Shown here: piece by piece, positions 15,416 through 26,124 of the stretch
How positions within the stretch are numbered: the stretch's first letter is position 1
How the letters are laid out: the number at the start of each line of letters is the position of its first letter
DNA from: Gemmatimonadota bacterium
GTDB taxonomy: Bacteria > Gemmatimonadota > Gemmatimonadetes > Palauibacterales > Palauibacteraceae
Direction of reading: 5' to 3'
Assembly: GCA_046758745.1 (NCBI GenBank)
Contig: JBHIAV010000007.1
Span: forward strand, 1-64,000
DNA: 64,000 nucleotides
Position numbers and translations under genes: made by a program
The notes under the pieces: model-generated
The model's database searches: none
What the model was told of the DNA's origin: nothing
What the model saw: the letters and a program-made list of their open reading frames with translations, nothing else

Positions 15416-18400
15416 ATGAGCCTCCGCATCGTCTGCTCGCGCCGCAATGCTGTCCTGTGGAGTGCCTGCGCGTCGCGATTTCTGGACGAGCTGACACACC
15501 GCACGGGGCCGAGAGGCTACCCCTCCTACCTGTGGATCGCGCACAGGAACCAGCGCGATTCTCTTCTCGAGCTGGCGGCGAATCGGCGGCTGAGCGGATG
15601 GCTGGCGCCGCCCTTCTCCTTCTTCTCGGAGCTGCGGGAGCTCTTCCGCATCGAAGCCCGGCCGGTCGGTATCCTGACTGGCCGGCTCCTCGTCGCGCGG
15701 CTCGCCGCCCGGCTCGCCCGGCAGCTCGGAATGGGAACGGCGACACGCGAGGGCGGCCCCGCTCGGGCGCATATGCTGGACGGCGTGTTCAGCGAGCTCC
15801 TGCCCGAGGGCGTAACGCCGGAGGAGCTTCGGCGAGTGCTCGATCGGCTGGAGGGAGACGACTTCGCGCGGAAGCGGAACGCATGGGTGGCCGATGCGTA
15901 CGCCGCGTTCCTTACGGAGCTCCGGGCGCGCGACCTGTACGATCCCCGGTCGATCCACGCCATGGTAGCAGCGCGCATCGAGGAAGGCTTCCTGGCGGAA
16001 GCGATCGGGGGTGCCGGCCGGCTGCACGTCTACGGCATCACGTCGCTGCGCGGCCGCCGTCGGCTGTTTCGCGCGCTGGCCGAGCAGACGGAGGTGAAGG
16101 TCAGCGTCTACCTGCCCGCCGAAGAGGAGCCCTCCGAATGGGAGGAGCTCGCGACGGAGGGGGTGGAGGAGATCGAGGCACCCGAGACGGGCGGCGACAT
16201 CAAGGTGCAGCCGACTCCCGACGCGGTTCGCGAGGCGACGTGGGTGGCCCGCCAGGTGAAGCGGCTCCTCGCCAAGGGGAAGGCGGAGCCTCACGAGATC
16301 GGGGTCGTCGCCCGCTCGGGGCGGCAGGACACCCGAAAGATGCACATGGCGCTCCGGGCGGCCGGGGTTCCGAGCACGGCGCGCATCCGTACGGTGCTCG
16401 CAGAGATCCCGAGCCTCAAGGCGCTTCTCGAGCTCCTGCGTGGGGAGGCCGAGGTGTGGAGCTACAGGGTCCTCCGGCAGGTGCTGGCGAGCCCGTATTT
16501 CGGCGCCGGGATCGACCTCCGCGCGATCGACCGCATCGCGGGAATGCGCCGTGTCGAGGGGCTCGAGGCGTGGGCCAAGGCGCTCCTGGACGCCGGGGCG
16601 CAGGTAGAGGCGCGAGGGCGAGAGAAGAAGCGCCACGGCCCCGACGGTGTGTCGGCGGACCGGCTCGAGGAGGACATTCCGAGGTTCGAGGCGTTTCGCG
16701 AGAGGGTCGCCGTGCTGGGCGGCGAGCGAGCGGAGCGCGCGTGGATCGACCTCACCCTTGAGGTGCTGGGCGGCAAGCGGTTCGGGTTCCGGCGCCGCCT
16801 CTGTCGGCCGGTCGCCGAGCGGTGGGACATCGTGCGGCTGGACCAGCGCGGAGTCCTTGTGGTGGAGGCCCTTCTCCGGGAGTGGCGGGATCTGGTGGAC
16901 TCCGAGGAGGCATTCGGTGCGGAGGAGTGGCACAACCGCCTCCGGCGACTGCTCGAAGCGAACGAGCTGGCGCTTTCCACGCCACTCCAGGAGGGCGTGC
17001 AGGTGCTCGAGGCTCACGAGGCCGCCCTCACCCCGTTCCGGCACGTCTTCCTGGTGCACGCGAACGACGGCGTCTTTCCGAGAATGGCCGCCGGCACGGG
17101 CGTCTTCTCCGACGCCGAGCGGGGCCGGCTGCGAGAGCTGGGGCTGCCGCTCGCCAACCGGGATGAGGCGATCCGTCGTGAGCGGACGTTGTGGCGCGCG
17201 GTGACGAACGGGGAGCGGGTCACCATCACCTACCGCACGACGGACGCGAACGGCATCCCGCGGCTTCCGTCCCTCATGGTGCCGTCGCACGAGCCTGAGA
17301 CCGAGCTCCCGCGGACCCTGGACATCGCCACCCTGGAGCGCGTGAGGGATGATCTGGAGCCGGTCAGCCCGGCGGAGCAGCGGAGGCGCGACGTGCAGCG
17401 CCTCGCGAAGCTCCGGCGGGGCGGGGAGACGTCGGTCTTCCTCACCCCCGACCCGGCGAGCCTTCGTCACGCCGTGCTGGGGGCCTTCGCGGAGGAGCTC
17501 CGGGCGGGCGGCCTCGACGAGCACGTGAGCTCGGAGCGGGAGCTCATCGTCAACGGGGCGGGGAAGGGCGGCCGGGTGGCGGCCGATCCCGCTTCCCTCT
17601 TCGCGCTCGACCGTCCGCTATCCGAACGCCCGACCGCGTGGAACGGCAAGCTCCGGGACCCGGTCGTCCTCTCGGAGCTCCGACGTCGATTCGGCGAGGA
17701 GCACGTGTGGTCGGCGAGCCGGCTTGAGATGTACGGGCGGCGGCCTTTCGACTTTCTCCTCGAGCACGTGCTGCAGCTCGGCGAGACCGAGGAAGCGGAG
17801 GAGGAGACGACTCCGCTCACTTTTGGGAGCGCGGCCCACGCGCTGCTCGAGCGCTTCTACCGGACGGTGCAGGGGGAGCTGCCGCAAGCTTTCGATGAAC
17901 GAGCCCGGGCGCTCTACCAGCGGGTGGCCGAGGAGGTCTTCGCCGAGTTCGAGGCCGACTGCGAGCGGTGGCTTGGTCTGCCCCCGCTGTGGGCCGTCAC
18001 CCGAGAGGAGGTGCGGGAGAAGGTGGCGGAGTATCTGGCGTGGGAGCTCGAGCACCTGGCGAAGGAGGACGCGCGCCCCCTGCTGGTCGAGTACGAGTTC
18101 GGAGGAGAAGGCGGTCCGGTGGAGCTCGAAGGGCTCGACGCGCGCGGTTGCCCCTCCCGCCTCCGCCTGCGGGGGCGCATGGACAGGGTGGACCGGTACG
18201 GGGAGGGGACGCGGGCGTGGCTGCGGGTCATCGATTACAAGAGCAGCCGCATTCCGAGCGCCGGCAGCTACGAGGACGGTGCCCTCCTGCAGACGGCCCT
18301 GTATATGAAGACGCTCCACACAGCGGGCCATGAGGCCGTGCGGAGCGGCGTCTACCGCCGGATCAAGAATCCTCAGAAGAGAGGGATCGGCGCCGAGCTT

Positions 18401-18586
18401 CGCGGGGCGGCAGTGGACAACGTGCTGAAGTACGCCCTGAGCATCCCGTGCCGCGTACGGGAGGGGCTGTTCGAGGCCGTCCAGGCACGGTCCACGAAGA
18501 TCGAGGATTGGCAGCCGGGCCGCGAGGTGACGCGCAACGAGGCGAGGATCACCACCGGCACGCGCTTCGACGCGGTGAGGGAGTGA
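15416..18586 (+). CDS. addB: AddB-like subunit: inactive helicase region plus C-terminal PD-(D/E)XK nuclease
   Basis: SASRLE, G...H..LE.F, RGRMDRVD, VIDYKS, LQ..LY; directly upstream of the AddA-like gene. Confidence 0.85.
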   Translation: MSLRIVCSRRNAVLWSACASRFLDELTHRTGPRGYPSYLWIAHRNQRDSLLELAANRRLSGWLAPPFSFFSELRELFRIEARPVGILTGRLLVARLAARLARQLGMGTATREGGPARAHMLDGVFSELLPEGVTPEELRRVLDRLEGDDFARKRNAWVADAYAAFLTELRARDLYDPRSIHAMVAARIEEGFLAEAIGGAGRLHVYGITSLRGRRRLFRALAEQTEVKVSVYLPAEEEPSEWEELATEGVEEIEAPETGGDIKVQPTPDAVREATWVARQVKRLLAKGKAEPHEIGVVARSGRQDTRKMHMALRAAGVPSTARIRTVLAEIPSLKALLELLRGEAEVWSYRVLRQVLASPYFGAGIDLRAIDRIAGMRRVEGLEAWAKALLDAGAQVEARGREKKRHGPDGVSADRLEEDIPRFEAFRERVAVLGGERAERAWIDLTLEVLGGKRFGFRRRLCRPVAERWDIVRLDQRGVLVVEALLREWRDLVDSEEAFGAEEWHNRLRRLLEANELALSTPLQEGVQVLEAHEAALTPFRHVFLVHANDGVFPRMAAGTGVFSDAERGRLRELGLPLANRDEAIRRERTLWRAVTNGERVTITYRTTDANGIPRLPSLMVPSHEPETELPRTLDIATLERVRDDLEPVSPAEQRRRDVQRLAKLRRGGETSVFLTPDPASLRHAVLGAFAEELRAGGLDEHVSSERELIVNGAGKGGRVAADPASLFALDRPLSERPTAWNGKLRDPVVLSELRRRFGEEHVWSASRLEMYGRRPFDFLLEHVLQLGETEEAEEETTPLTFGSAAHALLERFYRTVQGELPQAFDERARALYQRVAEEVFAEFEADCERWLGLPPLWAVTREEVREKVAEYLAWELEHLAKEDARPLLVEYEFGGEGGPVELEGLDARGCPSRLRLRGRMDRVDRYGEGTRAWLRVIDYKSSRIPSAGSYEDGALLQTALYMKTLHTAGHEAVRSGVYRRIKNPQKRGIGAELRGAAVDNVLKYALSIPCRVREGLFEAVQARSTKIEDWQPGREVTRNEARITTGTRFDAVRE

Positions 18587-18598
18587 GGTAACCGGGCC

Positions 18599-21500
18599 GT
18601 GCGAGAGATGCGGTGGACGGACGAGCAGGTCGAGGCGATCACGGCCCGCGGGGACGTCCTGCTCGCGGCGAGCGCGGGAACGGGCAAGACGACCACGGTC
18701 GTAGGCAAGGTCCTCTGGCTCCTTGGCCTCGACGTTGGCGTGCAGGCGGGTACCGGCGAGCCCCTTCCTCCCTGTCCCGACCCCTGCGCCGTCGAGGAGA
18801 TCGCGGCGATCACCTTCACGGAGAAGGCGGCGTACGACCTGAAGCGCAAGCTCCGCGCGGAGATCGGGCTTTCGGAGCGGGCGGAGGAGCTCCGGTGGCA
18901 GATCGATCGCGCCTCCGTCGGCACGATTCACGGCTTCTGCGGCGAGCTGCTCCGCGACCACGCCCTGCGACTCGGCATCGACCCGACCTTCCGGATCCTC
19001 GACGAGCGGGAGACCACCCTCCGACAGGACGAGATCATCCGGGACGTCGTCTTCAAAGCGCTCGAGGACCGCGAGCCGGGAGCGCTCGACCTCGTCAAGC
19101 GCTTCACCCTGCCGGGTCGGCGGCAGCGCGCGGGGACGATCGGGCATGTGCGCAGCGTCCTGCACGACATCCGATGGCGGCACAAGCGCTACGAGGGCTG
19201 GACCGCCGACCGAGCGGGCGGAGACGAGCGACCGCGAGAGCTGGCCGAGGAACGGCTGCGGGCGATCGCCGAGCGGGCCGGGGTTTGGGACGAGCTGCTT
19301 GCGAACGCCGAGCTCGACGAGCGCGCCGTGCGCGATGCCGCGGCGCTCTACCGTCTCGCCTTCGAGTCGCTCCGCCGGTGGCTCGCCTGGCTGGAAGAGG
19401 AGAACGTCCGCGACTTCGACAGCCTGATCCTCGACGCGCGCCGGCTCCTCACACGCGAAGCGACCCGTCCGGCGCTCGAGAGCATCCGGCGGTGGTACCG
19501 GATCCTCATCATCGATGAGTTCCAGGACACGGACGGCGCGCAGCGCGACATCGCGTTCGCGATCGCCGGCATCGCGGTGCGGGGCGGTACGGGTGAGCCG
19601 GGCCCGCGCAGGCGGGCCGGCGGCGCGCCGCAGCTCTTCCTGGTCGGCGACCCCAAGCAGAGCATCTATCGCTTCCGCGGCGCCGACATCTCGGTGTGGA
19701 ACGCGGTCCGCCGGGCCCTGTGCGGCGACGGCGAGCCGCTCCAGCTCACGCACAACTTCCGGAGCGAGCCGCAGGTCGTCGATTTCGTGAACCGCGTGTG
19801 CTCGAGGGCCATGAGCGAGCGCGCGGCGGCGATCGCCCCCGAGATGCCGGAGAGCCGGGTCGACTACCGAACGCTGGTGCCGGCGCGCCGTCCGAGCCGA
19901 GCGGCGGGCCTCGAGTGGCTGGCAGTGGACGGCGGGAGCAACCAGGCGGACCGGCGGGAGATCGAAGGAAAGCTCGTCGCCTCCCGGATCCTCCAGCTGG
20001 TGGGACGCGCCGCGGTCGTCGATCCGGAAACGAGACGGCCGCGCCCCTGCCGGCTGCGTGACATCGCGATCCTCGGGCGAACCCGCGACGCGCTCGCCGC
20101 CGTCGAGCGTGGCCTGCGCCGGTACGGCATCCGCACGTACAACACGGCGACGAGCGGGCTGGCCGACAGACAGGAGATCCTGGATCTGGTGACCGCCCTT
20201 CGGCTGATCGACAAACCGCACGATGATCTGCGTGCCTTCGCCTACCTGCGCTCCCCCTTCGTCGGCCTGCGCGACGAGATCCTCTCCCGCATCCGCCTCG
20301 ACCGCGCTACGGGCGGCGGCTCTTTCCTCCGGCAGGCGGAGCGCTTCGTCGAGGCGACGGCGGCGAGCGAGATCGAGTGGCCCGCCGCCCCGGAAAGCCC
20401 CCACGTCGCGCAGGTGGAGCTCGAGGCGCTGGAGGCCGGCCTCCGGGCCATCCTCGACGCGCACACGCTCGTCGACCGGGCGGACACGGCCGAGCTGCTC
20501 GAGGAGGTGCTGCAGCGCACCGGGTATCGGCTTCATCTTCTCCTGCGCGATGGGGCGGCCGAAGCCACGGCGAACATCGAGCGCTTCCTCGCGCTCCTCG
20601 AGGAGTACCGCCACCTCTCCCTCGGCAGCTTCCTCGTCCTGTGGGACCGGTGGGGCGAGCGCGACCTCGGGATCCCGCAGGCGCCGCTGTTCAGCCACGA
20701 CGACGACGTGGTGACCCTGAGCACGATCCACACGGCGAAGGGGCTCGAGTGGCCAGTCGTCTTCCTCATCGACGCCGGCGACGGGCCCGACATGGGAAGC
20801 CGGCTCACCGATACCTACTGGAGCGATCCGAAACTCGGACCGGTGTTCATGCCGAAGAAAGCCGAGCGCGGAGCGTGGTGCGCCAAGCTCTTCGAGCGGG
20901 CGCTACTGGAAGAGCATGCCGAGGAGGCGCGGCTCCTGTACGTGGCGACGACCCGTGCGCGCGACCGGTTCGTCGTCTCCGCTCCGACGGAGCGGCTCAA
21001 AGGGTATGCCGCGTGGCTCGGGCTCGGGCTGGAGGACGCCGTCGAAGTCGCGGAGGCGGGGTGGCTCGCCGATGCGGTGGGGCCCGAGGAGCCGACGGGC
21101 GAAGTCCCGGGAAGCGCAGGGAGTCAGTTCGAGCTGTTTCCCGGCGGCGTCGAGGGACCGGCCGCCACGGGCGAGACGCCGGCCGCTCCAGACGGGGTGT
21201 CGGCCACGGCGGAGGAGAAAGCCGGCGTCGTGGCGGGTCACATCGAGCGCGCAGTGCGGCCGATGGTGGTCCATCGCGAGCCGATCGCCATCCAGACCCT
21301 CCTCAGGCCATCGCCGGTCTCGCTCGCCTGGCTCGAGGGCGTCGAGCCCGCCGAGTGGCCGGAGCTCGTCAGGCCGGTTCCCACGCCTAGGCTCCGCTTC
21401 ATGACGTCCGCCACGGAGCTCATGATGCGCGAGCGGGATCCGGAGTCGTGGAAGCTCCGCTACCTGCACGGGGTGGAGCCCTGGTGGCGATTCGCCCCCG

Positions 21501-22147
21501 ATCCCGAGGCGGAGCGCACGCTCTCGGGGACGGTGCGAGGCGCGCTCATTCACGGCGTGCTTGAGCGGATCCAGGAGGCGGAAGAGCTCGCCCGCGTGCT
21601 GAACGAGACGATCGCCGGGATCGGGGCGCCAGACCTCGAGGAGCTCCTGGCGCCGGGCACGGAGTACCGGCGGGCGCTCGAGCGGGAGATCGAGCGGGTC
21701 GTGCAGAGCGAGACATGGGAGTGGTACGTGGAGGGGGAGCACTACCGTGAGCTCGCCTTTCTGCGCCTCCTGGGACCGCGGGAGTGGCGCCACGGGCGCT
21801 TCGACCTCTATCGCCCGTCCGGCGCCCGCTCGACGGGCCGGGAGATCGGCGTGGCGAGGGATGGTTCGGCGGCCGACGGAGAGGACTCCTGGATCATCGA
21901 CTTCAAGACGCACCAGATCGGGGAGGGGGAGGTGTGGTCGACCGCGAAGGAATACGAGGTCCAGGTGGCGGTGTACCGGGAGGCGGCGGAGGCGCTGACC
22001 GGCTCGGTGGCTCTCGCCGGTGTGGAAGCGGCCGGCGGAGCGGGAACAGCTTCGGGCGAACTCGGGGGGACGGCGTCCGATGTGTCCGGCCGAGTACGGG
22101 TCGTCCTCCACTTCACGCACCCGAACGTGGTCGTGGAACCGGGCTGA
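18599..22147 (+). CDS. addA: AddA-like UvrD/SF1 helicase with C-terminal RecB-type nuclease
   Basis: Q-motif, ASAGTGKT, ITFTEKAA, TIHGFC, IDEFQD, VGDPKQSIY.FRGAD, NFRS, TIHTAKGLEW, LYVA.TRAR, G.FDL...IIDFKT..Q..VY. Confidence 0.92.
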   Translation: MREMRWTDEQVEAITARGDVLLAASAGTGKTTTVVGKVLWLLGLDVGVQAGTGEPLPPCPDPCAVEEIAAITFTEKAAYDLKRKLRAEIGLSERAEELRWQIDRASVGTIHGFCGELLRDHALRLGIDPTFRILDERETTLRQDEIIRDVVFKALEDREPGALDLVKRFTLPGRRQRAGTIGHVRSVLHDIRWRHKRYEGWTADRAGGDERPRELAEERLRAIAERAGVWDELLANAELDERAVRDAAALYRLAFESLRRWLAWLEEENVRDFDSLILDARRLLTREATRPALESIRRWYRILIIDEFQDTDGAQRDIAFAIAGIAVRGGTGEPGPRRRAGGAPQLFLVGDPKQSIYRFRGADISVWNAVRRALCGDGEPLQLTHNFRSEPQVVDFVNRVCSRAMSERAAAIAPEMPESRVDYRTLVPARRPSRAAGLEWLAVDGGSNQADRREIEGKLVASRILQLVGRAAVVDPETRRPRPCRLRDIAILGRTRDALAAVERGLRRYGIRTYNTATSGLADRQEILDLVTALRLIDKPHDDLRAFAYLRSPFVGLRDEILSRIRLDRATGGGSFLRQAERFVEATAASEIEWPAAPESPHVAQVELEALEAGLRAILDAHTLVDRADTAELLEEVLQRTGYRLHLLLRDGAAEATANIERFLALLEEYRHLSLGSFLVLWDRWGERDLGIPQAPLFSHDDDVVTLSTIHTAKGLEWPVVFLIDAGDGPDMGSRLTDTYWSDPKLGPVFMPKKAERGAWCAKLFERALLEEHAEEARLLYVATTRARDRFVVSAPTERLKGYAAWLGLGLEDAVEVAEAGWLADAVGPEEPTGEVPGSAGSQFELFPGGVEGPAATGETPAAPDGVSATAEEKAGVVAGHIERAVRPMVVHREPIAIQTLLRPSPVSLAWLEGVEPAEWPELVRPVPTPRLRFMTSATELMMRERDPESWKLRYLHGVEPWWRFAPDPEAERTLSGTVRGALIHGVLERIQEAEELARVLNETIAGIGAPDLEELLAPGTEYRRALEREIERVVQSETWEWYVEGEHYRELAFLRLLGPREWRHGRFDLYRPSGARSTGREIGVARDGSAADGEDSWIIDFKTHQIGEGEVWSTAKEYEVQVAVYREAAEALTGSVALAGVEAAGGAGTASGELGGTASDVSGRVRVVLHFTHPNVVVEPG

Positions 22148-22306
22148 GCGGCGCGAGGCCGACCGCTCGTTCGGCGCTCGGGCCCGTGGCACGTACCCTG
22201 CGCAGAATGGGAAGGGGGCGGTGAGCATACGAAGGGGGCGGTAACTGGCCCTTCAGGCTTTACCGGTCGACGCCGGAGGGCTCGGCTCGAGCGGAAGCAG
22301 AGTGTG

Positions 22307-22336
22307 TTGACAAGCCCCGAGGTGGAGGGGTACAGA
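22307..22336 (+). promoter_or_regulatory. Sigma70-type promoter TTGACA-N18-TACAGA
   Basis: Perfect -35 box; no plausible CDS downstream on +, so it probably drives the structured RNA. Confidence 0.55.
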
Positions 22337-22341
22337 TAGCA

Positions 22342-22572
22342 CCGCGGGGATGTCTCCACGGAACGACAGGGCCGCACCGGGAATGACCTCCCGGCGATCG
22401 GGCAGTGGGTTCATGAGCGCCTTCCGAGCCCCGACCGTGGGCGGTGTGTCCCGACTTTCGTAGAGGATCAGACAGCGGGCGGGGCTAAGGCCCACGGGAC
22501 TCCGAAAGGACCCTGCAACCTTCATGTCCGGTTGCCTCGTGCCTAAGGCCCCGCTCGCCCCTTACGCTTTTC
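22342..22572 (+). ncRNA. Candidate ~220-nt two-domain structured RNA (unassigned)
   Basis: Domain 1 (22342-22478) is a long irregular hairpin. Domain 2 (22475-22558) is a branched fold with a TCC-GAAA-GGA tetraloop and a GCAACC/GGTTGC hairpin. Several G-U pairs work only on +. Pyrimidine tail follows. Confidence 0.65.
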
Positions 22573-22728
22573 TCCTCGCGCTCCTCCCGTGATCGGCCAC
22601 ACCTCTCGCGCTCGCCGGGCCACTGCCCCCGGGCGGCGCCACGGCACACGGGCGCACGGGCCGCATGAGGGGTGCTCGAAGCCTACGGCGGTCTCGGCCA
22701 GGGCGACGATACTCAAGGGATAAGAAGC

Positions 22729-22801
22729 GGGCGGACCAGCGGTTTCGTGTGGGGGCGCTTACGCACATCTCGGCCGGTCCGCCCTGATCCGCTTCGGGAT
22801 C
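22729..22801 (-). promoter_or_regulatory. Conserved structured 3' UTR, copy 1 (small GATCC hairpin plus 12-bp GC stem, terminator-like)
   Basis: GGGCGGACC 22729-37 pairs with GGTCCGCCC 22776-84 and extends via a G-U on the minus strand; near-identical to 23257-23329. Confidence 0.7.
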
Positions 22802-22816
22802 TCTATGTGTAATGGG

Positions 22817-23095
22817 CTAGAAGTCTACCCATATGTCGTTGTCAGCCGCGATGGTACGCAGCTTGGTGATAGGGGCGGCCGGGTCGTTCGACAGCTTCGC
22901 CACCCGCACCTCGCCACTGGCGGTGACCGAAATCAGCGGCGAATGGCCCACCGCGAGCGCATCCGGCGGCACCCTGAACAGGGTGCCTGTTTCGAGGGTC
23001 ACGTAGGAGCCTGGGCTTTCGATCTCGTTGAAGACCATCTCCGGTAGACGATTGGTGAGATGGTCGCGTGCGACCTTCCGGGCTTGAGTAACCAC
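22817..23095 (-). CDS. 92-aa protein of unknown function, paralog 1
   Basis: AAGGAG SD plus GTG; about 69/92 aa identical to 23344-23622 with mostly conservative changes. Confidence 0.9.
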   Translation of the reverse strand: MVTQARKVARDHLTNRLPEMVFNEIESPGSYVTLETGTLFRVPPDALAVGHSPLISVTASGEVRVAKLSNDPAAPITKLRTIAADNDIWVDF

Positions 23096-23099
23096 GACT

Positions 23100-23123
23100 T
23101 CAGCTCCTTGAACGACGGTTCAT
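23100..23123 (-). CDS. Leader micro-ORF MNRRSRS (copy 1)
   Basis: GAGGAAAAGGAC before ATG; contains the SD of the main gene; TGA 4 nt before GTG; same layout in copy 2. Confidence 0.55.
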   Translation of the reverse strand: MNRRSRS

Positions 23124-23171
23124 GTCCTTTTCCTCTCGAGATGTGCGGTTGCAGTCTCCCCACAACAACAC

Positions 23172-23197
23172 AACAACCGACCCTCCGGGCGGTTCCC
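23172..23197 (-). promoter_or_regulatory. ECF-type promoter GGAAC-N17-GTT (copy 1)
   Basis: GGGAACC and CGGTTGTT boxes are kept in both copies while the spacer has diverged. Confidence 0.6.
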
Positions 23198-23256
23198 GGT
23201 AGCTAACCGGCCGGTTTCTGCGAGGAGTGGGGACTACGCGTTTCTCGGGAAGAGGT

Positions 23257-23329
23257 GGGCGGACCGGCCGCAGGCTGGAGGGGCGCATGTGCACATCTCG
23301 GCCGGTCCGCCCTTGATCCGCTTCGGATC
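23257..23329 (-). promoter_or_regulatory. Conserved structured 3' UTR, copy 2
   Basis: Perfect 14-bp stem GGGCGGACCGGCCG 23257-70 / CGGCCGGTCCGCCC 23299-312; GATCCG/CGGATC hairpin 23315-29. Confidence 0.7.
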
Positions 23330-23343
23330 TCTATGGTGGTAGG

Positions 23344-23622
23344 CTAGAAGTCAACCAGGATGTCGTTGTCAGCCGCGATGGTGCGCAGCTTGGAGATCGG
23401 AGTGGCTGGACTGTCCGACAGCTTCGCTACCCGAACCTCCCCACTGGAGGTGATCGAGATCAACGGCGAGTGACCCGCTGCGAGCCCTTCCGGTGGAACC
23501 CTGAACAGGGTGCCTGATCCGAGGGCCACGTAGGATCCAGGGCTTTCAATCTCGTTGAAGACCATCTCCGGGAGACGATTCGACCGTCTTTGACCTGAGG
23601 CGGCGGGCGCTTGGGTAGCCAC
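23344..23622 (-). CDS. 92-aa protein of unknown function, paralog 2
   Basis: AAGGAG SD plus GTG; paralog of 22817-23095. Confidence 0.9.
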   Translation of the reverse strand: MATQAPAASGQRRSNRLPEMVFNEIESPGSYVALGSGTLFRVPPEGLAAGHSPLISITSSGEVRVAKLSDSPATPISKLRTIAADNDILVDF

Positions 23623-23626
23623 GATG

Positions 23627-23650
23627 TCAGCTCCTTGTGTGACGGTTCAT
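23627..23650 (-). CDS. Leader micro-ORF MNRHTRS (copy 2)
   Basis: Same SD, length and 4-nt spacing to GTG as copy 1. Confidence 0.55.
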   Translation of the reverse strand: MNRHTRS

Positions 23651-23699
23651 GTCCTTTTCCTCTCGTCGATGTGCACATGCAGCTTGCAGTTGCCGAAAG

Positions 23700-23726
23700 A
23701 ACAACCGCCACTTCCACCGGGTTCCC
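23700..23726 (-). promoter_or_regulatory. ECF-type promoter GGAAC-N18-GTT (copy 2)
   Basis: GGGAACC...CGGTTGTT at the equivalent position to copy 1. Confidence 0.6.
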
Positions 23727-24014
23727 AGCAGGCCTCTGGTGGCTTTCCTCAGTGGGAGCCGAACTCCTCGGCGTGGTCATCGATCGACGCGTCGACGGCC
23801 TGAAGGGCGTAATCTCGACATACGCGTGCACGAGCCGGGTCGGTCCGGCCCGACCTCGAGCCCGTGTCACGGCGCGGCCTCCAGCGATAGAAGGGCGGCG
23901 GAAAGGTCATGCCGAGAACCGCCGCAGGCTATCCTCGGGCAGGCGGTGAGGGAAGACGTTCGGTCGTGGCGGAGCGCACCCGACCGGTTGGCCGCTGCCG
24001 AGGTCTGGAGCCGC

Positions 24015-24476
24015 TTACGGCGTCATGCTGCTGTTCCAGATGTCCCGGTGGAGCTTCCAGCTCCCATCCACCTTCTTCCACACCACGATGTACTTGCCGT
24101 GATCGAGATGGGCGCCATCCGCCCCTGTGACCACATACGAGCCCCTCACCTCGATCGCCGTTTCGCCGAAGTCCTCCACCTCGCCCATCTTCAGCTCGGC
24201 CTGTGACCCTGACTCCACGGCACTCTGCCAGAACGCTTGGATCGCCTCACGGCCCTCGATGGGCTCGCTTCCCGGCGGCAGCAGCATCGCGTCGTCCGTG
24301 TACAGCGCCGCGATGCCGGCCCCGTCGCCCGCGTTCCACGCCGCTTCCCACGCCTCGGTCGCCTCCGCGATCGCCGCCCGCGTGTCGCTGGAGGCCTGGC
24401 CGAGGCTGACGGAAGGAAGCGCCAACAGGGACGCACACAGCATTGGTACCACGTTACGCATGGTTCTCAGCTCCAT
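24015..24476 (-). CDS. Secreted NTF2-like / DUF4440 protein
   Basis: Signal peptide; WN.GD...IAALYT.DA.LLPPG...I.GR.AI..FW; GKY.VVWKK..G.WK..RDIWNS. Confidence 0.88.
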   Translation of the reverse strand: MELRTMRNVVPMLCASLLALPSVSLGQASSDTRAAIAEATEAWEAAWNAGDGAGIAALYTDDAMLLPPGSEPIEGREAIQAFWQSAVESGSQAELKMGEVEDFGETAIEVRGSYVVTGADGAHLDHGKYIVVWKKVDGSWKLHRDIWNSSMTP

Positions 24477-24567
24477 CTTAAGGGGGGACGAGCGTGGTTA
24501 CATGCCGCTAGGAAGCTCGCGGTCATGCTCGAATACTGCGCCCTAGGCTACGGTAGACGGACTCGAA

Positions 24568-24972
24568 CTACAACGGTTGGCCCAGGGTCAGCGGTCCGTA
24601 GCCGTACGTCGTTACCATCCAATAGAGGATGAGCGCGGCGCCGGCCATCGAGAGGTTCTTCATGAACTGCGCCTGCTCGACCTGCTTCATCGCCGGATCG
24701 GCAACGGCCCAGAAGTTGTGCATTATGAAAGCCGTCGGGACGAGAAAAAGCACGAGCAGCCAGGTCCCGATTTCCATCCAGATGCCGAGCAGGACGCTAA
24801 GGCCGCCCGCCAGGATCATGAGGCCGGTCGCCATCACGGCAAGCTTCGAGGCAGGGACGCTCTTCGAGCCGGCGTACTGGGACATGGGACCGATCTGTGC
24901 GAAGTGACCGAGCCCGGACCCGATGAAGATCATGGCGAAGAGCATGCGGCCGATGACGTACAGCGTGTCCAT
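24568..24972 (-). CDS. DoxX family membrane protein
   Basis: GR.LF...FI.SG..H; H.FW; FMKN.SM.GAAL; GGAGG SD. Confidence 0.92.
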   Translation of the reverse strand: MDTLYVIGRMLFAMIFIGSGLGHFAQIGPMSQYAGSKSVPASKLAVMATGLMILAGGLSVLLGIWMEIGTWLLVLFLVPTAFIMHNFWAVADPAMKQVEQAQFMKNLSMAGAALILYWMVTTYGYGPLTLGQPL

Positions 24973-25210
24973 CTCTCCTCCCGGTCGGGTGGGCGGGTCG
25001 GGGCGAGGAGCGCCGCGCTGCGCGGGACGCCGGCGGCCAGTCCCATCTTAGGATGCGGCACCGCCCGTACGCCAGCGGTGGGGGGAGCGAAGGTGTGGGG
25101 GGCTCGGGACGAGGGGTCTGCGAGCTTATATAGTTCTGCTAGCATATCGCTCCCGCGGAGCCCGCATGAGCTGAACGGAGCGGCCGTCCTCACGACCGGA
25201 GGGGGAGGTA

Positions 25211-25399
25211 GTGGAAGGAGCCGAGCACCCCGCCATCGAGGACGAGCTGAAGGATTTCGTGAAAGGGCGGCTGGCGGCCTACAAACACCCCCGCCGGATC
25301 ACTTCCGTCGATGGGCTGTCGAAGACGGCCACGGGAAAGATCCGGCGGTTTCTTCTGCGAGCAGGCGGCCGGGATGCCTCGCGGGACGTGCGAGCTTGA
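25211..25399 (+). pseudogene. Remnant C-terminus of an AMP-binding (acyl/aryl-CoA ligase) enzyme
   Basis: ELKDFVKGRLAAYKHPR.I..VD.L.KTATGKI.RF.LR matches the adenylate-forming A10 region; rest of the gene is absent. Confidence 0.7.
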
Positions 25400-26124
25400 A
25401 TCCGATCCTGGCCGTCCTCCTCTACTCCTCCCTCGCGGCGGCCGTGGCGGCGGTCGGTGTGCTCCCCCTGGTCGGCCGTGAGAGCGTTCCGAGCCGGTGG
25501 GTCGGCTGGGCGAGCGCCCTAGCGGCCGGCATGATGCTGGGGGCCGCGTACATGCTGATGGCGGTCAAGGGCGCTCGCCCGATCCCCGAGGCCGCCGGAG
25601 CCGCGCTCGGGATCCTCTTCATCGCTTGGACGCACGCGGTTACGCGGACGAGCGATCTCGACCTTAGGCGGCTCTCCGAGCAGGAGCCCGCCTACGGCTA
25701 CCAGGTGGTGCTGATCGACACCTTGCACTCGGCCTCCGAGGGAGTGGCGATCGGACTCGCCGCGGTCGTCGACCTCTCGTTCGGCCTCGTCATGGCGTTC
25801 GCGATGGCCGTGCACAACATACCCGAGGCCACGATCCTCGGCGCGGTGCTCCGAGCCGGAGGCGTTCGCCTCGGTGAGGCGGCGGGGCTCGCGGTGGCCA
25901 CGAACCTGAGCCAGATCCTCCTCGCGGTCGCGACCTTCGCCGTCGTCTCGGCCGCCCCCGGGGTGCTCCCGTGGGGGATGGGGTTCGCGGCGGGAGCGCT
26001 CCTCAACCTGGTCATGGTTGAGCTCCTTCCGGAGAGTTACCGAGAAGCCGGGCACACGAGCATCGCTCTCGTCACGAGCGTGGCTCTGGGCTTGGTGGTG
26101 CTGCTCAATGGGATGATCGCGTGA
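25396..26124 (+). CDS. ZIP family metal transporter (first of a pair)
   Basis: AAG.MLGA, LHS..EGVAIG, HNIPE, GFAAGA motifs; TTG start chosen. Confidence 0.88.
   Translation: MNPILAVLLYSSLAAAVAAVGVLPLVGRESVPSRWVGWASALAAGMMLGAAYMLMAVKGARPIPEAAGAALGILFIAWTHAVTRTSDLDLRRLSEQEPAYGYQVVLIDTLHSASEGVAIGLAAVVDLSFGLVMAFAMAVHNIPEATILGAVLRAGGVRLGEAAGLAVATNLSQILLAVATFAVVSAAPGVLPWGMGFAAGALLNLVMVELLPESYREAGHTSIALVTSVALGLVVLLNGMIA

Follow-up and report, generated by a model that had tools for sequence, protein, structure and literature searches.

A candidate convergent small RNA facing two tandem leader-bearing genes in a Gemmatimonadota bacterium

What does a short, conserved piece of non-coding DNA do when one of its predicted hairpin loops is the exact complement of the start-codon region of two neighbouring leaders? 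The question is raised by a locus in the window analysed here, a stretch of 64,000 nucleotides (nt; 64 kb) from contig JBHIAV010000007.1 of the Gemmatimonadota bacterium assembly GCA_046758745.1. Two tandem minus-strand units, A and B, each carry a gene for a 92-amino-acid (92-aa) protein behind a common leader, and an 84-nt element lies downstream of the pair. We tentatively propose, giving the idea a little less than an even chance, that a small RNA transcribed convergently with the genes represses translation of both paralogues at the leader AUG, possibly helped by pairing between the 5' and 3' ends of each mRNA. We know of no characterised regulatory RNA in this phylum.

Tandem units, their leader and a matching element

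A preliminary description of this DNA had pictured tandem minus-strand units with common boxes, a seven-codon leader open reading frame (ORF), a 92-aa ORF and a structured 3' untranslated region, and each of these features is found in the sequence. Units A and B, which form a repeat family (D1) with a spacing of 527 nt, have a mean column identity of 85% (MAFFT alignment of 22700-23260 with 23230-23790) and are built in the same 5'-to-3' order: upstream boxes, a 5' box, a leader with an upstream ORF (uORF), the 92-aa ORF and a 3' hairpin that holds a 3' box. Gene A (22817-23095, minus strand) and its paralogue gene B (23344-23622, minus strand) both start with GTG and encode predicted soluble proteins of 92 aa and 75% identity, members of a family without a name. 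The ratio of nonsynonymous to synonymous substitution (dN/dS, Nei-Gojobori) is 0.28 overall and 0.19 for the core (codons 17-92), indicating that A and B are protein-coding genes under purifying selection. A third paralogue of 55% identity, on another contig of the same genome (locus L003, C37:14730-14975), has neither the leader nor the RNA element described below.

The leaders (A, 23100-23137; B, 23627-23664) contain a 24-nt block that is identical in the two units, with 0 mismatches; it has two matches in the window and had none in 100 shuffles. This block, comprising a Shine-Dalgarno-like GAGAGG, an AUG and the seven-codon uORF, is invariant between the paralogues despite a synonymous divergence (dS) of 0.49. 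The uORF of A (MNRRSRS*, 23100-23123, minus strand) includes the AAGGAG Shine-Dalgarno sequence of gene A, and its stop lies 4 nt ahead of the GTG; that of B (MNRHTRS*, 23627-23650, minus strand) has the same layout. Because the uORF spans the main Shine-Dalgarno sequence and ends so close to the GTG, initiation at the leader AUG probably governs the main ORF. In P0004, a family member from a second lineage with an over-extended ORF call, the upstream stretch translates as ..EEKDMN.., as does the window leader in that frame, and the same leader DNA is therefore implied in that lineage. In run X4, contig record 12 is a variant unit, and no differences are listed between its leader and 23644-23663. 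The leader core AAGGACATGAAC has a single other 12-nt match in the genome (G000, contig C37, ~10829, plus strand), which lies ~4 kb from the third paralogue; ~0.4 chance matches are expected per such genome.

The element is an 84-nt predicted three-way junction at 22475-22558, listed here provisionally on the plus strand. It is 92% identical to positions 221-306 of L004, a metagenome contig that carries the 3' end of a homologue from the P0004 lineage, ~63% identical to A; the element is thus better conserved between the two lineages than the protein. In L004 it lies downstream of the terminator hairpin of the gene, and its flanks do not align to the window. Hairpin P2 of the predicted fold (22515-22535, plus strand) reads GCAACC-UUCAUGUCC-GGUUGC, with a 6-bp stem and a 9-nt apical loop at 22521-22529. 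That this loop matches both leaders had been suggested before, and the match is exact: UUCAUGUCC is the 9-nt complement of GGACAUGAA at both leader start codons, covering the AUG and the last bases that precede it, inside the invariant block. The loop is predicted to be unpaired (p 0.99-1.0), with a calculated energy of -14 kcal/mol for its duplex with the leader. The sequence GGACATGAA occurs at 15 sites in the 3.08-Mb genome (both strands), 3 of them within this 1.2-kb locus, and the loop core CAUGUCC is kept, together with the leader, in the second lineage (L004/P0004). A second partial anti-leader site, GGUUCAUG (22408-22415, plus strand), is the complement of CAUGAACC in both leaders (8-nt exact match to 23117-23124 and 23644-23651); part of it is base-paired in the predicted fold, no equivalent is seen by eye in the short 5' part of L004, and the match may be due to chance.

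How far does this arrangement extend? A covariance model of the element (R1) found it in 1 of 151 genomes, the window's own, with 150 related genomes negative, and in 2 of 26 sources, the window and L004; it was in neither L003 nor the 23 other family loci searched, a search that did not take in loci L040-L063. The element is single copy in the genome, its sequence pattern was absent from the genome contig collection, and further clade members with DNA were found neither in genome-contig nor in viral scans, the metagenome scan giving only L004. Rfam 15 gave no match at E<=1 in 20000-26000 and none at the gathering score in the whole window. Run X4, from a related strain of the same habitat (corresponding to window 22480-22558 and 23453-23663), adds a variant of the element (contig record 8; 6 differences and 1 gap, with the loop changed and one base longer) and the gene-unit variant mentioned above, in which the leader is the same, the 5' box is different and the N-terminal region is divergent. 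The element thereby seems to co-occur only with the leader-bearing clade, and leader and element stand together in the window and the P0004/L004 lineage, and apparently also in the relative sampled by run X4. The regulatory logic of a leader and an antisense hairpin, as first described, gains from this pattern, since leader, element and TTGACA motif recur together in L004/P0004, with a variant in X4; outside this clade the parts do not travel together, as L003 and the 23 other loci searched lack the element and the 5'-3' helix is not family-wide. A 90-aa minus-strand ORF that starts in the loop was rejected as a coding sequence, its frame being shifted in L004 by a 2-nt indel.

Candidate promoter, complementary mRNA ends and a proposed mechanism

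Upstream of the element lies a candidate promoter on the plus strand, a motif match of TTGACA, 18 nt and TACAGAT (22307-22337). TTGACA itself occurs 6 times in the 64 kb, counting both strands (128 kb of strands), and TTGACA-N16-19-TACNNNT has one match in the window, with 2 of 100 shuffles having one. In L004, TTGACA-N17/18-TACNNNT is found at 351-380 on the minus strand, upstream of the element (0/200 shuffles), and in both loci it lies on the strand opposite to the genes; these shuffle figures overstate the case, as the pattern was defined after both loci had been seen. A short palindrome, TCGGCTCGAGC/GCTCGAGCGGA, at 22282-22295, ~12 nt upstream of the TTGACA box, could be an operator of the candidate promoter.

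The two mRNAs would also have complementary ends. In unit A the 5' box CGCACAUCUCG (23137-23147, minus strand) is 100% complementary over 11 nt (inverted repeat I10) to the 3' box CGAGAUGUGCG (22762-22772), which sits in the loop of a terminator-like 3' hairpin (22729-22784, minus strand; inverted repeats I8 and I10). In unit B the 5' box GCAUGUGCACAUC (23668-23680, minus strand) is 100% complementary over 13 nt (inverted repeat I5) to the 3' box GAUGUGCACAUGC (23285-23297), again in the loop of a terminator-like hairpin, with a 14-bp stem (23257-23312, minus strand; inverted repeats I2 and I5). A, B and L004 all retain the hairpin stem, of 12-14 bp, in the face of sequence changes (compensatory and G-U, read on the gene strand), and the terminator hairpin itself is well supported by this comparison. 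The box pairing has a core common to A and B, GCACAUC with GAUGUGC, and extensions that differ on both sides, one position changing from C-G to U-A. Over 12 nt, the L004 3' box GAUGUGCACACG exactly complements the 5' box of X4 record 12, which is also implied by P0004, and this pairing adds a change from A-U to G-C; the pieces come from different samples, and their linkage is presumed. In the modelled A mRNA, the 5'-3' box pairing is part of both the minimum-free-energy (MFE) and the centroid fold (z -2.27).

As a family-wide trait, a 5'-3' helix was considered and rejected. Exact-match and local-helix tests were used, whole-untranslated-region (UTR) duplex folding being uninformative with its long spurious duplexes; only 5 of 49 units had helices reached in 4 or fewer of 200 shuffles, and the rest were unremarkable (21 of 22 in the second set; L055 and L061, with broken frames, had been dropped beforehand). 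The five are L025 and L034, with 0/200 shuffles, and L031, L003 and L062, with 3 or 4 of 200. In L025 (~2384-2411 with 2756-2782; z 12.9) and L034 (~2445-2471 with 2784-2808; z 6.0), near-perfect helices of 25-27 bp surround the whole small ORF, with sequences unrelated to each other and to the window boxes; they could be RNase III-type processing stems or a means of closing the mRNA. Loci L030, L031 and L032, from metagenome-assembled genomes (MAGs) labelled Zixibacteria (two) and Ignavibacteriaceae, encode nearly identical small proteins and have in common a 5' box, GCGAGTTTGG, together with a 3' box immediately ahead of the terminator, the L031 pairing being lengthened by changes on both sides. 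Their likeness suggests recent transfer between phyla.

From these features we infer the following course of events. A small RNA of at least about 220 nt would be transcribed convergently from the TTGACA motif at 22307, and its exposed 9-nt loop UUCAUGUCC would form a kissing contact with GGACAUGAA at the leader AUG of both mRNAs. The contact would block ribosome loading and so repress both paralogues at once, less translation of the uORF entailing, if the two ORFs are coupled, less translation of the main ORF. In the sister lineage, where the main ORF is read in frame from the leader AUG, the start targeted by the RNA would be that of the gene itself. Pairing of the 5' UTR box with the box in the terminator loop (11 bp in A, 13 bp in B) could close the mRNA and affect its stability or translatability, and may either stabilise or silence the full-length message.

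Several observations weigh against this proposal. Complements of at least 9 nt between a shuffled 391-nt RNA and the 120-nt 5' UTR arose in 50 of 300 shuffles, so the loop match alone is not significant; 0 of 26 element pairs have a compensatory change (two sequences compared); and only two or three closely related lineages are involved. The plus-strand region, earlier described as structured throughout, folds over its whole 396 nt no better than shuffles (z +0.51), and only the conserved 84-nt element stands out. A generic sigma-70 promoter scan of 22100-24100 called no promoter, leaving, of the promoter first proposed, the motif TTGACA-N18-TACAGAT. The distance from TTGACA to the element differs, ~160 nt in the window and ~65 nt in L004, local alignment of the two loci outside the element gave no significant similarity, and consensus folding of both strands (RNAalifold) gave -42.85 kcal/mol for the gene strand versus -34.6 kcal/mol for the plus strand. 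In P0004 the leader AUG is in frame with the main ORF, as a read-through fusion; the uORF, present in A and B as described, is not conserved as a separate ORF because in that sister lineage it is fused in frame to the main ORF. The 5'-3' pairing is absent from the MFE fold of the modelled B mRNA, the 5'-3' complementarity taken alone is marginal, the observed score being reached in 11 of 200 (A) and 12 of 200 (B) dinucleotide shuffles, and the inverted boxes can equally be explained as two copies of one DNA-binding site. Of the fold-back mRNA in the preliminary description there remain the complementary boxes, at equivalent positions in both units and with different flanks.

Among the alternatives, the one that fares best has the element act on the gene strand, either as part of a read-through 3' UTR or as a separate RNA. 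Its loop would then read GGACAUGAA, identical rather than complementary to the leaders, and could mimic them, competing for a factor that binds both, for instance the 30S subunit or an RNA-binding protein. The greater stability of the gene-strand consensus fold speaks for this idea, the loop is fully unpaired on that strand too, and in both loci the element comes after the array's last gene; the G-U pattern in the element favours neither strand. The terminator-like hairpin between the last gene and the element, followed in L004 by a U-rich tail, argues against simple co-transcription with the genes. No promoter-like motif was seen on the gene strand, whereas TTGACA-N17/18-TACNNNT, which is the sole strand-specific evidence, lies on the opposite strand in both loci, and we know of no candidate binding factor. 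On balance the plus-strand, antisense-type reading appears more likely, roughly twice as probable as its gene-strand counterpart, and we consider competition by a leader mimic unlikely.

An unnamed protein family and further readings of the locus

Could the locus instead be a type I toxin-antitoxin-like system, in which the 92-aa protein inhibits growth, the convergent RNA is the antitoxin, and leader ORF and fold-back silence the mRNA? Precedents exist for each part: a leader ORF and a 5'-3' long-distance interaction are among the type I features listed in the relevant passages of PMC8594479, a convergent cis-encoded antitoxin that acts in trans at a ribosome binding site appears in those of PMC6393315, and a soluble type I toxin, SymE, in PMC1891008. 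Tandem copies, here and in L019, L021 and L025, would fit such a system, as would the patchy spread of the family across phyla. The protein itself does not point the same way. It had been described as soluble, and the prediction agrees: GRAVY (grand average of hydropathy) is ~0, the maximum Kyte-Doolittle value over 19 residues is 0.89 (A) and 0.72 (B), and the isoelectric point is ~5.5-5.7. Neither A nor B has the hydrophobic segment of the small membrane peptide usual in type I systems, and the 92-aa protein matches no toxin, defence or phage family. Plasmid and phage searches returned no homologue, the surrounding genes are housekeeping genes with no mobile genes among them, and a single RNA for two toxin copies would be unusual.

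The family as a whole is real and widespread. The homology search called for in the preliminary description, run as a profile search over 1.84 billion representatives, returned 332 clusters at E<=0.001 and 82 at 1e-10. Nearly all members are ~91 aa long with a C-terminal end ..VNF, and no informative fused or longer forms were found. The 46 family loci come from MAGs labelled Gemmatimonadetes, Acidobacteria, Eisenbacteria, Planctomycetota, Zixibacteria, Nitrospiria, Latescibacteria, Bacillota and others; the distribution is patchy, with the gene in 0 of 60 near relatives and in 2 of 401 genomes of the phylum, the window's own included, and the protein tree is poorly resolved, 13 of its 20 inner branches being open. 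The 92-aa family had no match in the Pfam, NCBIfam, PHROGs and PADLOC profile libraries; 49 members compared with Pfam gave just 4 single-member matches (E 0.002-0.08), PDB sequences gave no significant match (best E-value 0.008, to a de novo protein), and the ESM Atlas model is poor (pLDDT 0.42), its feature and structure matches giving no lead. A full-text literature search with three family-member accessions, which excluded supplementary files, found no paper. Protein family and RNA element are undescribed in Rfam 15, Pfam, NCBIfam, PHROGs, PADLOC and PDB.

In homologous loci the small gene usually has a dedicated transcription regulator for a neighbour. Nine of the first 22 loci (L018-L021, L023, L025, L026, L028 and L035) have a same-strand gene for a sigma-54 enhancer-binding protein immediately before it (4 of 4 scanned with Pfam were positive, the other five being assigned by BLAST clustering), and a histidine kinase gene precedes the activator in 6 of those 9. 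Ten of 45 loci have the GG-N10-GC motif of the -24/-12 type ahead of the small gene, versus 30 of 781 control segments. A divergent LysR gene is present at two loci, L024 (by Pfam) and L022 (by BLAST to L024), and PAS-LuxR genes at three (L049, L056 and L062). The window shows no sigma-54 motif upstream of A or B and no activator nearby, its genome carrying 6 sigma-54 activator genes elsewhere. The regulator thus seems to have been swapped between lineages, and regulation in the window clade appears to have moved to the RNA level. Tandem paralogue pairs are also seen in L019 (2483-3267), where a repeated upstream block precedes each gene copy, L021 (2492 to ~3190) and L025 (2441 to ~3100). A position beside dedicated regulators suits a regulated effector as well as it does a toxin. 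Of the other 46 family loci, 45 (all except L004) show no comparable RNA, 23 of these having been searched with the model and L040-L063 not, and many lie instead beside sigma-54 activators, LysR or PAS-LuxR regulators. Together these data make a type I toxin-antitoxin locus improbable.

A broader and more speculative conjecture, to which we assign only a small probability, embraces all these contexts: the ~91-aa family may be a tightly gated, growth-modulating effector with lineage-specific switches, of which a structured RNA silencing two tandem copies by a loop-leader kiss would be the one used here. Nearly every family member is placed under a regulator of its own, a hint that its expression has to be kept within tight limits. 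If the conjecture were true, the switches would be sigma-54 two-component systems, LysR, PAS-LuxR, ORF-enclosing mRNA helices or this RNA, and the locus would be a soluble-protein, type-I-like toxin-antitoxin system or a stress switch.

A further alternative concerns the boxes, not the element. The 5' and 3' boxes are near-palindromic around TGTGCACA, and might be two copies of a DNA operator at which a regulator brackets each gene. The perfect palindrome ATGTGCACAT (repeat D13) is present in each box of unit B; since a site on double-stranded DNA is unchanged by inversion, the apparent covariation of the boxes would be expected in this case as well, and the shuffle support for RNA pairing is marginal, as given above. 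In unit A, however, the palindrome is broken, yet 11 nt of 5'-3' complementarity are kept, and the 3' box always occupies the loop of the terminator hairpin, an exposed position in RNA; these two observations moderately favour RNA pairing over operator copies. The box pairing is also part of the MFE fold of the A mRNA, and the longer ORF-enclosing helices of L025 and L034, each with 0/200 shuffles, have unrelated sequences. Operator copies are, on this evidence, quite improbable. Least probable of all is that the arrangement has no regulatory meaning, the loop-leader match being chance or a duplication relic and the element an unrelated structured RNA or DNA site: the shuffled complements, the lack of covariation and the existence of just two full element copies would allow it, but among all genomes and loci searched, a second lineage is the only other place with element, leader and TTGACA motif side by side, the genome has few copies of the matched 9-mer, and the match falls exactly on an apical loop and a conserved leader AUG.

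The remaining features of the locus concern its surroundings. Each unit opens at its 5' end with boxes of the form GGGAAC ... CGGTTGTT (unit A, 23172-23197; unit B, 23700-23726; both minus strand), candidate promoters whose type can only be presumed; GGGAAC-N-CGGTTGTT has 2 matches in the whole window, and at least 2 matches arose in 0 of 100 shuffles. A regulon of the extracytoplasmic function (ECF) type for the GGGAAC...CGGTTG boxes was discarded after a genome scan gave no pattern. The neighbouring genes are an AddB/AddA-like helicase-nuclease pair, and genes for a DUF4440/SnoaL-like protein, DoxX, a ZIP transporter and a TonB-dependent receptor. The AddB/AddA-like pair consists of two large genes at 15416-22147 that match UvrD-type helicase and PD-(D/E)XK nuclease families, and ends 160 nt before the candidate RNA promoter. 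Between the two, just past the AddA-like stop and upstream of the TTGACA motif, are two direct 19-nt repeats (22204-22242), 84% identical and 20 nt apart, each terminating in GAAGGGGGCGGT.

Should the convergent RNA be real, it would represent a new class of structured small RNA without an Rfam match, and, in an uncultured lineage that has had little study, a clean natural case in which a single RNA governs two paralogous mRNAs by way of the leader they have in common. A first handle on a widespread but patchy protein family without a name would come with it, in a locus that is small and self-contained.

Comparison with known systems

The logic proposed here is that of type I toxin-antitoxin loci. 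In hok/mok/sok, leader and main ORF are coupled, Sok RNA is encoded in cis across its target and Hok is a membrane peptide. The window locus resembles that system in its short leader ORF before the main ORF, in a candidate RNA that would be aimed at the leader start and in complementary mRNA ends. It differs in that the candidate RNA gene lies ~560 to 1,100 nt from the leaders, whereas Sok overlaps its target: the loop, at 22521-22529, has no cis overlap with the leaders at 23100-23137 and 23627-23664. The product is also unlike the membrane peptide Hok, the leader ORF is not separate in the sister lineage, and neither Hok nor Ldr was matched in Pfam. A leader ORF and a 5'-3' long-distance interaction are listed for hok/mok/sok and Ldr/Rdl in the pertinent passages of PMC8594479.

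Other type I loci offer partial parallels. In tisB/istR-1, shoB/ohsC and zor/orz, the RNA is encoded beside its target and pairs with a short part of the 5' UTR, and in AapA1/IsoA1 the full-length mRNA is silenced by 5'-3' pairing; the RNAs of the first three are divergent and upstream, with small hydrophobic products, whereas the candidate here is convergent and downstream. SymE and RalR are exceptions to the rule of hydrophobic type I toxins, and SymE has an AbrB/MazE-like fold; no Pfam family, that of SymE included, matched the 92-aa proteins. As described in PMC1891008, SymE of E. coli is a soluble protein whose synthesis is restrained by the small RNA SymR at the start of translation, and control of a soluble protein by a small RNA at that point is what the window locus would have in common with it. 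SymR differs in overlapping the 5' end of symE in cis. The window locus has no family match, its proteins are not hydrophobic peptides and the candidate RNA does not overlap the leader in cis; membership in any of these families is not supported.

For the geometry, the closest precedent is SprA1AS/SprA2AS of Staphylococcus aureus. According to the passages of PMC6393315 devoted to them, these convergent cis-encoded RNAs work in trans, using a domain outside the overlap to reach the ribosome binding site. The placement of an RNA gene next to its target, put forward as a novelty in the preliminary description, is accordingly not new. The same passages give the product as a small hydrophobic cytolytic peptide and describe one RNA per toxin, in contrast to the soluble 92-aa protein and the one RNA facing two tandem genes proposed here; the 3'-end overlap is demonstrated for SprA, and we found no sequence or family relation between the two. 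What the window locus would have in common with the SprA system, as there described, is its design: an RNA gene converging on the 3' end of its target, pairing at the start region that prevents ribosome loading, and multiple related copies.

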